A stretch of DNA of 64,000 nucleotides from an uncultured Candidatus Saccharibacteria bacterium. Lineage in GTDB: Bacteria; Patescibacteriota; Minisyncoccia; Phycocordibacterales; UBA1006. Below are positions 48,001-54,000 of the stretch, piece by piece. Position numbers: made by a program. The stretch covers positions 5,413 to 69,412 of the forward strand of contig CAYQCC010000002.1 of assembly GCA_964415895.1 (NCBI GenBank), in the 5' to 3' direction. Numbering within the stretch: position 1 is the stretch's first letter; each line of letters opens with the position of its first letter.

Positions 48001-51000
48001 CCGTTCGAGCTATTCAATTCTTTACCAAGCCTGAACGATACAAAATTGATATTGAAAAGATTGGACCAATTGATGTCTATGGTCATGTAGAATATTCAGT
48101 GTTTATGGGAAAAGGAGAATTACGTATGAGAATTTTGGATATTAAATTATAAAAAACTGCGTCTGCAGTTTTTTATTTTCTGTGCTACAATCGTTTCATG
48201 AAAAGTCATTCCATTATTATTTATACTGACGGATCTTCTCTCGGTAATCCTGGTCCTGGAGGATACGGATGCGTTATTGTGTTTCAGGAAAAAGAACTCG
48301 TCGTAGAGCTTGGTGCGCATGCTAAAGCCACAACCAATAACAAGATGGAATTGACTGCAATTGTCACAGCTTTGGATTATCTAAGACAGCACAAGGTAAC
48401 ACCTGATTCGCACATTGTTATTCATACCGATTCGTCATATGCAATTAACGGAATCACTAAATGGGTATTTGGGTGGCTTAAAAATAATTGGATGACTGCA
48501 GCAAAAGCGCCAGTATTAAATAGCGAAATTTGGAAACAATTAATTCCACTAAAGAGTTATTTTAAGAATCTAACATTTGAACACGTGAAAGGTCATTCAG
48601 GAATTTGGGGTAACGAACGATGTGATATGATTGCGACCAGTTTTGCAAGTAATACATCTCTTAGTTTGTTTCACGGAAAGCTATCTGAATATGATGACCG
48701 GATTTTATCAAAGCAAAAACAATCTGCTTCATCTGTTAAAAAATCAGGAACCATTGCAGTTTCTTCAACTCCAAAATTTTCCTCCAGTGAAAAAGGGAAA
48801 TATGGAAAAGGTTCAGGAAAGGCATATTCGTATGTTGCTCAGGTAAACGGCAAGGTATATACATTTGAAGATTGGGATTCCTGCAAAACTGCTGTATATG
48901 GAAGATCAGCAAAATATAAAAAAGTATTTTCGGCCGCTGAAGAAGGAGAGTTAAAGAAAGAGTGGAGCTAACAACATAAAAGCGGGGATGCCGAAGGCAT
49001 CCCCGCTTTTATGTTGTTTTTATATCATCGTATTAAGATGATGATCATGTATTCATCGACATTTTTTACAATAATCACAGGAGGTTTGTTTGGAATGATT
49101 TGTGGAATGTTTATTATGCCGAATCAGATTACGCATTATGCATGGATTGGAATAATTATTGCGATTGTTTGGAATAAATTTTCAAAGGCGTATCTGCGTT
49201 CAAAAAATACTATCGGAATTATATTGTTATTTATTTCTTGTACTCTTGTTGGTTTATGGAGAGTAAACCAATTTCATATAAACTATTCATTTACTGATTT
49301 TGATCACTATAATAATCAAATAATTACAATCTCTGGTGTTGTAACAGAAACGCCAACGTTCAAGCCTGCAACTCAGTTGGTAAGAATTCATCCAGATTCA
49401 ATCAACGGCATAAAGCGATCAAAAACTTCTCGTGACATAGTGTTAAAATTCAGTGACTTGGAATCATTTTCTGCTGGCGATAAAGTACTCGCCTCAGGTA
49501 AATTTGCAACACGTGCAGATTTCGAATCAGATTCTGGTCGCATTGTTCAGTATCGATTGATGAGTTATAGCAGAAAGATTGCAGGTGATATCAAATCGCC
49601 TAAATTGATTCAGGTTATTCATAGTAAAACCAATGCTTTCAAATTTCTGGGATCAATTAAAAAATCATTTCTGAAAACCTTGAACGAGTTATTTATGAGT
49701 CCTGCGTCCGGATTATTATCAGGGATTATTATTGGTGATACATCAAATCTGGATAGTAGTTTGCTTGATATCTTTCGTGCGGTTGGATTGATTCACATTG
49801 TAGTGCTGTCAGGATATAACATAACCCTGGTTGCAAATTTCTTTGTTCGACTATTTGCGCCACTTGGTTATTATCGTAGACTTATCACAGCAATGATTGC
49901 TCTGATCTTTTTTATTGGTATTGTTGGAATTTCACAAACTGCCATGCGTGCTGGCATTATGGCGTTGTGTGCATTTGCGGCTCGGTATTATATTCGTCCG
50001 TATATTGTGACACGCGGAATTGGTATTGCGTTATTGGTTATGGTTTGGATATCGCCATACGCGTTGTTATTTGATTTGTCGTTACAGCTTTCCTTTCTTG
50101 CAACAATCGGAATCGTATACGTATTTCCCTTAATGTCAGAACGGTATGAGATGCTGGCAGAGAATACATTTGGCGAGATCTTTCTTCAAACTATTGCAGT
50201 AAATATTTTAACGTTACCAATTATTATTTATCAAATGGGAACTTTTTCATTAATTTCGTTTCCAATTAATATTGTCGTGTTGGTATTTATTCCATGGCTA
50301 ACTGTTGGTGGGTTTGCTGCTGTATTTATTGGAATGAGTTCGACATCTGTTGGTAGAATCTTTGCGTTTCCATTTCAAGTTATAACAGATACTATTATTA
50401 CGATTGCAACGTGGACGGCAAAACATGATCCTTTTAAATTATTATTCCCAATTTTCTCGATTTACTGGATTATAGGAATCTACGGAATCATATTTCTTTA
50501 CCTCATCAAGACGCACTCAAAAGCCTGATCTGGCTATCGATCAATACATGACTTGTGATATAATAAGTGATATATGGAACCATTATTTGCGTCAGCGCCA
50601 ACACCAGATTCACAAAATCATTTCCATGAAACATTTCATGGCGAGCAAAAAGTATCACCTCAATTCACGGATCCACAGGAAGAATTGGCATTTTTACGCG
50701 AACAACTTTCACGAAAAGAAGCAGCTCTTTCTGGTGCAGGATTGGAAGTAAAAAAGGAAGATCTTGCAAATAATTTGATCGAGAATTACAAAAAAACACC
50801 CGTAGAACAAGTAGTTCATCCAAGCGCGCAAATGACAAAAGCAGAACACGAAGGAATTGTTCTTGCATTGAAACCAGAAAAACATGATGACACTATGGCA
50901 GAACTTGTTCAGATATTGATGAATAAGGGAATTCGAAATGCACTTGAAACAGTTGCAAAAATGAACAGTCCGCATATTGATGATGATTTTCATCGGTTTT

Positions 51001-54000
51001 TGGTGCAATATCTATCGTCTTATCATGCGATTCCTGGACTCAATAACGACTCTGAAACATTCAAAAATTTGGACATTTCATTATTTGAAATTACATTACC
51101 TCAGGCAGAAGCTGGAAAAAGCTACAAGGAAAGTATTAGTTTGATGGAACAATTTTATGCATCAATGCAAGCAGTTGGTCCTGGAAAAAATGAAAAGAAT
51201 AATTATTTCTCGTTAGAAATTGCATTATCAAATGATAGTGAGCAGGTTATATTTTACATATGTGTTCCGAATTCCGTTGCATCATTGTTTGAAAAACAAG
51301 TACTAGGATTGTTCCATAATGCGCAAATAAAGTTAGTAACTAACGATTACAATATCTTTTTTGATGGTGGATTTTCAGCTGGTTCATACGGAGTCGCGAC
51401 CAATACCGACATTATGATGGTAAAAACATATGATGAATTCGACCATGACCCAATGGATTTATTACTTGGGGTCTTCGAAAAAATTAAGAAAGCCGGTGAA
51501 GGTGCATCTGTTCAATTGATTGTAAAGCCTGTTGGTACTAAATATACAGAACAGTATGGAAAGTTATTGGATCGACTACGCAAAGGCGAATCACTTAAGA
51601 AAATTAAAGAGTCATTAAATACAGGTTTTTCAGCAGAACTGAAATCGTTTGGAAAGGCATTTATGAATTTGGTTTCAAGTGAGCCTAAAAAACCCGAAGG
51701 AACTGATAAAAAAATCGATGATATCGCCATTGCAAATGTTACAAAGAAATTAAGTTCAACAATTGTAGAAACAACGATTCGTATTATTACTTCTGCTGAA
51801 TCGCAAGCTCGTGCAGATGAATTATTGCGTGACTTGGAATCTGCATTCTTGCAGTACCAGGAAGTTCAATCAAACGGTATTTCATTTAAACAACCAAAAG
51901 GTGAAGAACTAAAGATGATGTTTCGAGATTTTTCATACCGACGTTTTGATTCCGCAAAAGTATTCCATTTGAATTTTAAAGAAGTCTCAACCATGTTCCA
52001 TTTCCCAACACATGCGATGGGATCTGCTCAACTAAAGCAGTCTGGAGCGGCAACTCACCCTGCGCCAATGGAGATGGGTACTGATGGAATCTTGCTTGGT
52101 TATAACGAACATCGTGGACGAAACACGCCGGTTCATTTTGCACCAGCTGACCGATTGCGTCATTTCTATACGATCGGACAGACCGGTGTAGGTAAGACTC
52201 AGATCTTCTTGAAAATGATTATTCAGGATATTAAAAACGGTGATGGTTGCTGTTTTATTGATCCACACGGATCAGATTTCAACACCATTCTTGCTAATAT
52301 TCCACCTGAACGATATGACGATTTAATCTTTTTCGATCCAGCATATACTGCGCGACCAATGGGGTTGAACATGCTTGAATTTGATGAGCGTTCGCCACAG
52401 CAAAAATCCACAGTGATCGGTGAATTGATGTCATTGTTTGACAAGTTGTTTGATATGAAAGCACAAGGTGGTGCGATGTTTGGACAATACTTCCGAAACG
52501 CAGCGCTTCTTAACATGGAAGATCCTGGTTCTGGAAACACGGTTCTTGAAATTACACGCGTACTTGCAAACAAACAATTCCGCGATATGAAACTTTCAAA
52601 GAATAAAAATCCAATAATTTCAGAATTCTGGAAATCCGCAGAACAAACGAGTGGTGATCAAGGTCTTGAAAACTTCGTGCCATATATTTCATCAAAATTT
52701 GATGACTTTATTTCAAACGAATTCTTGCGACCAATTATCTTGCAAGAAAAATCAGCATTTAATTTCCGCGACATCATTGATGGAAAGAAAATCTTGATCG
52801 TGAACCTTTCAAAGGGATTGCTCGGTGAGAAAAACGCAAACCTTCTTGGTTTAATTATCATTATGAAATTACAGATGGCAGCAATGTCACGCGCTGAATC
52901 AGTTGACCTGTCACAATTTCCTCCTTTCTATGTGTACTTGGATGAATTCCAAAATGTTGTAACAGACTCGATTGCGTCAATCTTGTCAGAGGCACGAAAA
53001 TATAAATTGTCGCTGAACATGACTCATCAGTATATGGAGCAGCTTCCTGGTTTTATTAAATCAGCCGTATTTGGAAACGTTGGAAATATGGCATTCTTCC
53101 GTATTAATTCGGCTGATGCTGCAACCATCGAGCCCCGTATTATTCCACGATTTACAAAGGACGATATTATTAAACAGGAAAACTTTCATTGCGTCGTCAG
53201 TATGTTGGTAGATGGAAAGCCTGCACAAGCGTTTAATATGGATACGTTGACGACTGGATATGTGACTCCAAAAAGTGGTAATCCAAATCAGATTGAACAA
53301 TTGAAACAGTTGTCCTATTTGAAATATGGACGTGATCGTGCAGAAGTAGAACAAGAAATTGTAGAGAAATTTAGAATGGGATAAAAAGCGCGATTAGCGC
53401 TTTTATGTTTGACACGATATTCATTCTTGTCTCTACTTGAATCAATGAAGAGGACTATAAGCGGATTGCTTTCTCGGGGCTTGAAAAATAATGATTTTCA
53501 GCTATACTCCCCAGTATTACTATTAAATAAACACTATTATGCATTTTAAAAATGAGCGAACCTTTGTAATTATTAAGCCAGACGGCGTACAGCGAAGTCT
53601 AATGGGAGAAATTATCGGACGATTTGAACGAGTTGGACTGAAGCTTGTTGCTATGAAAATGATGCTTCCTGAAAAGGCGCACGTTGAACAACACTACACA
53701 CTTGATCCAGAGTGGCGACGAATCACAGGAGAAAAAACAATCAAAGGATACACTGATAAGGGTCAGACTCCATGGACAACTGATCCGTTTGAAGTTACTG
53801 ACAAGGTTTTGAAATATCTTCAAGATTACCTAACCAGTGGTCCAGTTGTGTGTATGATTTGGGAAGGAGCTCATGCAGTAGGGTTGGTGCGAAAGCTTGT
53901 TGGAAAGACAGAACCTCTTACATCAGATGTAGGAACCATTCGTGGAGACTATGTTATGGATTCATATGCTATGTCAGATTCTGATGATCGTTCAATTCGA

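Follow-up and report, generated by a model that had tools for sequence, protein, structure and literature searches.

Introduction

Type IV coupling proteins (T4CPs), such as TrwB of plasmid R388, VirD4, Cagβ and DotL, are built on a P-loop ATPase domain carrying an inserted all-alpha domain. T4CP-like ATPases unlinked to a type IV secretion system (T4SS) are encoded by ~96% of Patescibacteria genomes (PMC12102498). The Patescibacteria account for a large share of bacterial diversity and do not make their own nucleotides, and the way in which they acquire and handle DNA matters. Here we analyse an ATPase of 936 residues encoded directly downstream of comEC in a 64,000-nucleotide stretch, hereafter the window, of contig CAYQCC010000002.1 (assembly GCA_964415895.1) from an uncultured Candidatus Saccharibacteria bacterium. 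A first-pass annotation of the window had taken the two neighbouring genes for a pair and proposed a non-canonical DNA-uptake motor or a conjugation-like coupling protein co-opted for transformation.

Among 3,035 Patescibacteria genomes, Quiñonero-Coronel et al. 2025 (PMC12102498) recorded VirD4-like T4CP homologues in 2,918; of the 5,713 homologues in total, only 148 lie near virB4. VirB4 was found in 2,417 genomes, and relaxases were almost absent (109 in 3,035 genomes). In S. epibionticum the t4cp homologue proved non-essential and the T4SS essential, and exaptation was suggested. The same study notes that t4cp genes often lie far from virB4 in conjugative systems and lists 3-4 T4CP-like matches per Nomurabacteria genome (its Table S3). 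As for competence, transformation is mediated by ComEC, which the cells can do without for growth, the conserved com genes listed for the candidate phyla radiation (CPR) do not include ComFA, and Patescibacterial T4SS clusters come without a T4CP of their own (Wang et al., PMC10633639). The fusion of ComEC to a metallo-β-lactamase (MBL) domain is essentially absent from CPR bacteria (Méheust et al., PMC6744442), and T4SS-type ATPases take part in DNA import in H. pylori, with ComB plus ComEC, and in the archaeal Ced system (PMC12857230).

The window ATPase falls among the orphan T4CP homologues that the literature has already counted, and its soluble, probably fused form is a variant of a known, uncharacterised class of ATPase. 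Our analysis removes the comEC pairing as a false lead and gives the DUF8128/T4CP family a clearer anatomy, comprising a membrane-anchored form with a small partner and a soluble, probably fused form, a conserved position among housekeeping genes, what is most likely a leaderless promoter of its own, and full-length relatives both at the coupling-protein position of Bacillaceae plasmids and in Bacillus phages. With a probability of roughly 0.6 for the explanation as a whole, we favour a domesticated orphan T4CP-type motor, in a soluble and probably fused form, acting probably on intracellular DNA.

Domain architecture and fold of the ATPase

The first-pass annotation assigned the C-terminal half of the protein to the HerA/FtsK superfamily, with the signature of a T4SS coupling protein, and this assignment holds. 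Both open reading frames (ORFs) that it named are present (Table 1), and a check of motifs and hydropathy finds the ATPase soluble, with Walker A GQTGVGKT, IDPHG (residues 562-566) and YVYLDEFQN (residues 786-794) in place. No transmembrane segment is found in the protein, the highest 19-residue Kyte-Doolittle average being 1.27 as against ~3.0 at residues 2-27 of the anchored short forms described below. Across 101 long and short forms, conservation is complete or at least 90% for Walker A, the DE of Walker B, R808 and Q819, so that an active ATPase would be expected from the alignment. The spacing of R808 and Q819 after Walker B matches that of TrwB R375 and Q386, which we take to be the arginine finger and a sensor.

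AlphaFold2 models were built from 20 sequences (predicted local distance difference test, pLDDT, 60) and from 101 long and short forms (pLDDT 84, predicted template-modelling score, pTM, 0.64), and the latter model was searched against the PDB with Foldseek. TrwBΔN70 aligns over nearly its whole length, with a template-modelling score (TM) of 0.58-0.62 over 405-441 columns, and further matches are to Cagβ, DotL, TdpAB and DndH-C, as well as to HerA (4d2i, TM 0.53) and the HerA-NurA complex (9x1m). An unrelated AAA fold, raised as a possible refutation of the assignment, is not what the model resembles (TrwB TM 0.60-0.62 over ~410-440 columns). A helical bundle formed by residues 609-722 sits between the strands at 584-587 and 740-744, between Walker A and Walker B, and in the model it appears as the counterpart of the all-α domain of TrwB. 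The sub-threshold matches to sequence models all fall on coupling-protein families (TraG-D_C, TrwB_AAD_bind, DUF87 and TIGR03743), DUF87 scoring 17.5 against a cut-off of 23.2. That the 936-residue protein is cytoplasmic and falls, within the HerA-FtsK ring ATPases, into the type IV coupling protein (VirD4/TrwB-like) branch is, in our view, largely shown. It differs from the described T4CPs in having no transmembrane anchor, ~500 extra N-terminal residues (an extension plus DUF8128), curated scores below the cut-offs, a chromosomal housekeeping position and no neighbouring relaxase or T4SS genes.

Other ATPase families were considered and rejected. VirB4/TrwK of R388 gives the best Foldseek E-value in the PDB (2.7e-15 over ~900 columns), and the alignment spans both the N-terminal region and the ATPase domain, which hints at a comparable two-part layout, but with a TM of 0.27-0.31 and a root-mean-square deviation of ~15 Å. 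The protein matches neither of the VirB4 Pfam families CagE_TrbE_VirB and AAA_10, gives no significant profile match (hhalign probability 1% against a plasmid VirB4-like ATPase) and has no VirB3, VirB6 or VirB8 gene as a neighbour. No FtsK_SpoIIIE match is found in Pfam or NCBIfam, again with no transmembrane segment. A role in defence was likewise set aside, since PADLOC returns only a weak mad8 match (3.4e-9) and there is no defence context.

The N-terminal region, described in the first-pass annotation as 480 novel residues, is indeed uncharacterised, but it is not unique, being catalogued as DUF8128 (PF26449) and widespread. All 120 closest homologues, the 93%-identical protein P0001 among them, carry a precomputed PF26449 match, and a profile of the N-terminal 495 residues recovers 1906 clusters in a representative set of 1.84 billion proteins, 324 of them below 1e-30, among which are UniRef entries named 'DUF8128 domain-containing'. 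Our literature search found no paper on DUF8128. Those relatives of the ATPase that carry a taxonomic label come from metagenome-assembled genomes of Nomurabacteria, Paceibacterota and Minisyncoccia, which places the host in the class Paceibacteria of the Patescibacteria.

Anchored and soluble forms

Many full-length matches are ~790-840 residues long and align only from about profile position ~140 onwards. This short form, exemplified by Wolfebacteria OGM94236.1 and a Roizmanbacteria protein, consists of an N-terminal transmembrane helix, DUF8128 and the ATPase domain; it makes up a very large group (>4100 matches) and is 37% identical to window residues 166-935. The window protein is the long form, in which a 165-residue helical extension stands in place of the membrane anchor. 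The ~790-residue form, the 'orphan t4cp' of Quiñonero-Coronel et al. 2025, has the same domains and the same invariant motifs as the long form and is likewise chromosomal and not beside virB4, but differs in its transmembrane helix, in a separate upstream partner ORF of 131-146 residues and in its other neighbours.

This soluble partner ORF lies directly upstream of the short-form gene in all six contexts examined, and a colinear alignment pairs it with long-form residues ~4-150 (for instance, HGIEKAV..A...SPFILDAFHDALTDKL with KGIRNALE.VAKMNSPHIDDDFHRFLVQYL). A hidden Markov model of the small ORFs scores a mean of 7.1 bits and a maximum of 13.9 on 45 real long-form extensions, the 99th percentile of 1800 shuffles being 5.5. 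The alignments suggest that the long form likely arose when the small upstream protein was joined to the ATPase and the transmembrane anchor was lost. The small ORF has no Pfam family and is preceded by a divergent PMT_2 glycosyltransferase gene; in five of the contexts, identified here by our locus numbers, it occupies L085 7602-7997, L086 7557-7985, L087 7491-7901, L125 6599-6997 and L127 6540-6980. Downstream of the short-form gene lie prfB-ftsE-ftsX, gltX or comFC-pil genes, and five of the six contexts contain no com genes.

Phage and plasmid relatives

Beyond the Patescibacteria, residues 205-931 of the ATPase match phrog_5156 of PHROGs at 1.4e-71, and full-length relatives are found by tblastn and Foldseek in Bacillus phage G (gp156), phage JL, SPO1-like phages and several siphophages. 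Foldseek returns phage G gp156 at E 2.4e-41 and the phage JL protein at E 3.6e-38 (TM 0.61 over 846 columns). The DUF8128-plus-ATPase architecture also occurs on 504 plasmid records, mostly of Bacillus and Streptomyces, and hhalign against a B. subtilis plasmid protein gives a probability of 99.9 and E 1.9e-33 over window residues 211-923. The VirB4-like ATPase encoded by that plasmid is the one that gave no match above.

Three Bacillaceae plasmids encode the homologue ahead of a replication-relaxation family protein, with Tcp-like transfer genes and a VirB4-like ATPase further on; in a Gram-positive conjugation module this is where the coupling protein is encoded. These plasmid proteins, annotated as 'DUF87 domain-containing protein' (pBM69, B. 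subtilis NRS6116_2), share the layout of a soluble DUF8128-like N-terminal domain plus ATPase, as do the phage proteins (phage G gp156, CampHawk_129, phrog_5156) over their full length, and neither group has a transmembrane helix. Both differ from the window protein in identity (~20%), in lacking the 165-residue extension and in lying beside a replication-relaxation gene, with T4SS genes as well on the plasmids. The association with a T4SS or phage-packaging cluster that the first-pass annotation named as a possible refutation is thus seen in part: distant plasmid homologues have relaxase and T4SS genes beside them, and the Patescibacterial relatives have housekeeping genes as neighbours.

Two phage loci were observed in passing. 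In SPO1-like Bacillus phages, as in CampHawk (L088 4761-10286), the gene of the DUF8128/T4CP-like ATPase forms one block with the two genes that flank it, one ParM-like and the other of replication-relaxation type, and in phage G (L121 3249-7391) the ATPase is paired with a VirB-like ATPase (gp155-gp156). Both blocks look like conjugation-derived DNA-handling modules in lytic phages.

Genomic context of the ATPase and of comEC

The neighbourhood of the ATPase was compared across 80 loci drawn from species-representative genomes, a further 28 of metagenomic origin and several more found by exact look-up. Neighbours were placed by tblastn with probes for map, secY, adk, ndk, the β-CASP nuclease, comEC, recJ and rnhA only. 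Loci with an ATPase about 70% or more identical to that of the window are treated as its clade, the remaining long-form loci (50-65% identity) as lying outside it, and upstream genes were counted where at least 3 kb of upstream sequence was available.

Outside the clade comEC is upstream of the ATPase in none of 78 long-form loci. Its place is taken in 71 of the 78 by map, usually preceded by secY-adk, while downstream follow ndk (63 of 69 loci) and a β-CASP nuclease (65 of 69); ndk is also downstream in seven of seven clade loci. Within the clade comEC lies upstream in seven of eight loci, yet it is directly adjacent only in the window itself and in L128 and L006, whose ATPases are 93% and 70% identical to that of the window. 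In five of the eight (L001, L002, L005, L091 and L092) comEC is separated from the ATPase by an insertion of surface-protein genes 2-4 kb long, in L091 and L092 (90-92% identity) a gene for a 988-residue YadA-head/Peptidase_S74 surface protein, and in L093 only surface-protein genes precede the ATPase, with no comEC within 9 kb. The two proteins also diverge at different rates, ComEC falling to ~32% identity outside the clade while the ATPase retains 50-65% overall and 69% in the ATPase domain. The synteny and the divergence together indicate two independent conserved blocks that became neighbours in a single lineage, their junction being a variable hot spot. Since the adjacency is confined to one small lineage, the comEC-ATPase pair is a juxtaposition of local extent rather than a module and does not argue for a new DNA-uptake machine; the uptake reading of the first-pass annotation is left unsupported.

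The hot spot itself, the comEC-ATPase junction (window 50529-50573), collects variable surface-protein genes in the relatives (L091 5967-8933, L001 5801-7939, L093 395-8921). The insert types are YadA-head plus Peptidase_S74, InlB B-repeat plus Por_Secre_tail, and Hint-domain proteins.

The ATPase most likely forms a leaderless transcription unit of its own, as suggested by a -10 box near its start codon. The start has no Shine-Dalgarno sequence before it, and a perfect extended -10 element is in place (Table 1). Of 97 homologous loci, 87 have a comparable box that ends 5-10 nucleotides (mostly 6-8) ahead of an in-frame ATG, as against 3.4% of random positions, and it is present whatever the upstream gene. 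Boxes of the TATAAT/TATACT type ~6-10 nucleotides before the start are seen at many other genes of the window, with almost no Shine-Dalgarno motifs (for example 3247-4020 on the minus strand, 4095-4865, 6319-7080, 15403-17031, 42629-44959, 48198-48971, 58912-61245 and 62717-63175), which points to leaderless mRNAs as the norm in this genome. Adjacency here says little about co-transcription.

These data bear directly on the idea that the ATPase is a cytoplasmic motor docked on the MBL-less ComEC, pulling single-stranded DNA (ssDNA) in and replacing ComFA. The neighbouring genes in the window, L128 and L006 speak for it, as do a short-form locus of Wolfebacteria beside a comFC-like gene and a type IV pilus cluster, the absence of ComFA from the listed conserved CPR com genes (PMC10633639), the dispensability of both the t4cp homologue and comEC in S. 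epibionticum where the T4SS is essential (PMC12102498; PMC10633639), and the import precedents of H. pylori and Ced (PMC12857230). Such a motor is nevertheless unlikely, in view of the missing comEC at all 78 loci outside the clade, the inserts in five of eight clade loci and the one locus that has no nearby comEC, the separate promoter, the decoupled rates and the five short-form contexts that lack com genes. In distant relatives the gene 3' of comEC encodes a superoxide dismutase, a VTT-domain protein or an esterase, and never a DUF8128/T4CP ATPase. ComFA is a DEAD-box helicase. The window ATPase would resemble it only in the postulated role of a cytoplasmic ATPase beside ComEC; its DEAD match has E 0.1 over 27 residues, and it belongs to a different superfamily.

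The conserved neighbours of comEC are instead recJ and rnhA. The order recJ...rnhA-comEC recurs in the distant Paceibacteria loci L122 and L124 and rnhA-comEC in L123, and RNase_H genes of 245-269 residues precede comEC in L123, L124 and L128. ComEC itself matches PF03772 (Competence) at 1.2e-38, with 133 bits against a cut-off of 23, and TIGR00360 at 8.5e-17; its DUF4131 match is weak (21.8 against a cut-off of 31.6), yet the domain is present in homologues, and there are ~9 hydrophobic segments. Its true start is probably ATG 49038, giving 496 residues, because the annotated ATG 49011 sits within the terminator hairpin of rnhA; relatives are 492-497 residues long. More than 700 ComEC homologues were found, and no MBL domain is present in the window protein (Pfam) or in any of the 120 homologues of 480-520 residues listed. 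The first-pass annotation was thus right to describe a channel protein without MBL domain, but not to call it truncated, since ~500 residues without MBL is the usual form in Patescibacteria.

A wider cluster of HIT (minus strand), recJ, rnhA and comEC (window 45842-50528) is kept across distant Paceibacteria (L122, L123, L124, L128), placing the gene of the DNA-uptake channel consistently beside those of an ssDNA exonuclease and an RNase H. Imported strands could be broken down by RecJ and RNase H for nucleotide salvage. The window RNase HI carries a C-terminal extension of ~100 residues past the RNase H domain, to which no family matches.

Table 1 Features of the comEC-ATPase region (window coordinates).
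Feature	Position	Strand	Remarks
recJ, ssDNA exonuclease	46374..48152	+	TIGR00644 at 1.2e-143; part of the recJ-rnhA-comEC block, not of the ATPase block
RNase HI, 257 aa	48198..48971	+	Pfam RNase_H at 1.2e-39 over aa 5-148; directly upstream of comEC
Terminator-like hairpin	48972..49016	+	20-bp stem, then T run; closes the rnhA transcription unit; overlaps the annotated comEC ATG
ComEC channel protein, 505-aa ORF	49011..50528	+	OB/DUF4131 plus Competence domain; without MBL nuclease domain
Extended -10 promoter element TGATATAAT	50556..50564	+	perfect box; ends 9 nt before the ATPase ATG at 50574
ATPase ORF, 936 aa	50574..53384	+	soluble; >1200 full-length homologues
N-terminal helical extension, aa 1-165	50574..51068	+	helices in the AlphaFold2 model; PHIDDDFHRFLVQYL motif, invariant columns in the long-form alignment; long form only
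DUF8128 domain, aa ~166-480, alpha/beta	51069..52013	+	PF26449 on close homologues; common to the short form and the Bacillus phage and plasmid homologues
T4CP/TrwB-like P-loop ATPase domain, aa ~506-935	52089..53384	+	from motifs and predicted fold
Walker A GQTGVGKT, aa 535-542	52176-52199	+	motif in ATPase domain
All-alpha insertion, aa 609-722	52398-52739	+	helical bundle in model
Walker B YVYLDE, aa 786-791	52929-52946	+	motif in ATPase domain
SEARKY	52986-53003	+	motif in ATPase domain
THQY	53022-53033	+	motif in ATPase domain
ndk, nucleoside diphosphate kinase	53539..54141	+	PF00334 at 1e-38
Small ORF, 146 aa	54346..54786	+	no Pfam match; L001 and L128 counterparts DUF2238; between ndk and the β-CASP gene in some relatives
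β-CASP metallo-β-lactamase nuclease, aCPSF1/RNase J-like	54820..56295	+	Beta-Casp 9.5e-37, RMMBL, Lactamase_B

The downstream genes raise another possibility, namely a HerA-like helicase that works with the β-CASP nuclease to degrade nucleic acid for repair or salvage, Ndk converting the products. The order ATPase-ndk-(small ORF)-β-CASP is kept in 63-65 of 69 loci, HerA (4d2i) and HerA-NurA (9x1m) are among the structural matches, and in the lineage of the window more nuclease genes are close by (recJ, RNase H and an EEP nuclease, together with the HIT protein). We consider this quite unlikely: TrwB, Cagβ and DotL fit the ATPase domain better than HerA does, the β-CASP protein is of the aCPSF1/RNase J type, usually found in RNA decay, and each gene appears to have its own promoter. 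Two loci, L003 and L007, lack ndk and β-CASP downstream of the ATPase, and the neighbours of the short form are different again. There is no NurA gene, the β-CASP nuclease being found two to three genes downstream instead.

That the ATPase is a remnant of an integrated conjugative element or a prophage might be supposed from its closest non-Patescibacterial relatives, which are carried by Bacillus phages and by Bacillaceae and Streptomyces plasmids. Such an origin was rejected on synteny and composition, the synteny alone largely refuting it, and we hold it to be very improbable. More than 70 species-level genomes have the gene at one and the same housekeeping position, identity within the class stays at 50-65% (~69% for the ATPase domain), the GC content of the gene matches that of its flanks, and no relaxase, integrase or T4SS gene is near it. 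The 38 ORFs scanned in the window (~20 smaller ORFs being left out) include no relaxase, integrase, T4SS, comEA, comF or pilus gene, and neither are relaxase or T4SS genes seen in the Pfam-annotated gene tables of five long-form loci.

Putative role of the ATPase

In the explanation that we favour, the protein belongs to the family with DUF8128-plus-ATPase architecture, which is chromosomal in Patescibacteria and unlinked to T4SS or relaxase genes. The Paceibacteria-type long form would have arisen by fusion of the small soluble upstream protein to the ~790-residue anchored ATPase, the transmembrane anchor being lost. The ancestral order is map-[ATPase]-ndk-β-CASP at the end of the ribosomal/secY gene cluster, and in the lineage of the window the ATPase-ndk-β-CASP block has moved beside recJ-rnhA-comEC. 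By analogy with its family, a hexameric ring would hydrolyse ATP at the subunit interfaces and thread or remodel DNA, and DUF8128 plus the N-terminal extension may serve as a module recruiting a partner or substrate. The motor would then act on DNA inside the cell, in replication, partition or the processing of incoming DNA, rather than as an import motor docked on ComEC. An intracellular role is the most likely of those considered, because the protein is soluble, universally conserved and encoded among housekeeping genes.

Second in this ranking comes a true coupling protein of the chromosomal Patescibacterial T4SS, encoded away from virB4 and recruiting DNA or protein to it. The T4CP-type fold with its all-alpha domain, the plasmid homologues at the T4CP position of Tcp-like conjugation loci, the T4SS clusters that have no T4CP of their own (PMC10633639) and the frequent distance of t4cp from virB4 in conjugative systems (PMC12102498) all suit this role. 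The long form, however, has no membrane anchor, and it is never near virB4 in the loci examined, most of which were probed for other genes only. T4CP homologues moreover occur in 2,918 genomes as against 2,417 with VirB4, relaxases are almost absent (109 in 3,035 genomes), and in S. epibionticum the t4cp homologue is non-essential though the T4SS is essential. We regard a T4SS coupling role as improbable, and return to the domesticated motor.

Several points weigh against the latter. The curated T4CP models remain below their cut-offs (TraG-D_C 21.8 against 22, TrwB_AAD_bind 15.5 against 20.5, TIGR03743 TraD 39.2 against 366, NF045973 28.5 against 250), and a sequence search of the PDB gives only marginal matches to TrwB and DotL with the full-length profile and nothing significant with the N-terminal profile. 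We infer ring formation, ATPase activity and DNA binding, all three, for the 936-residue protein. As for the fusion, hhalign of the small ORF against the N-terminal extension is marginal (E 0.055). The long and short forms are not told apart among the 3-4 T4CP-like matches per Nomurabacteria genome. The juxtaposition with comEC in the clade points toward competence genes, as does the Wolfebacteria short form, ~0.9 kb from its comFC-like gene and a pilM/O/B/T/C cluster. Finally, the gene order beside ribosomal operons may reflect inertia rather than a housekeeping role.

A more far-reaching scenario would make of the near-universal orphan DUF8128/T4CP ATPases, both the anchored form with its small partner and the fused soluble form, the missing cytoplasmic motors that import foreign DNA into these nucleotide-auxotrophic cells through ComEC or the essential T4SS, the DNA then passing to RecJ, β-CASP nucleases and Adk/Ndk for salvage; the clustering seen in the window would be functionally driven. 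This is a speculative and unlikely extension.

Other observations in the window

The window Ndk is 200 residues long and the Pfam NDK model (135 positions) matches it in two stretches, the better at residues 92-179, while the orthologue in L128 has 155 residues; the start codon of the window ndk may have been placed too far upstream. Among NCBIfam models the β-CASP nuclease scores best with 'type VII CRISPR-associated Cas14' (2e-117, far below the cut-off), followed by archaeal aCPSF1 (5.5e-98), and not with RNase J.

Por_Secre_tail is a C-terminal sorting signal of the type IX secretion system. It occurs in the window at 31517-34204, in a protein of 895 residues with a Peptidase_M43 domain and four InlB-type B-repeats, in a host that is presumably monoderm. 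A protein similar to this product lies upstream of the ATPase in L093.

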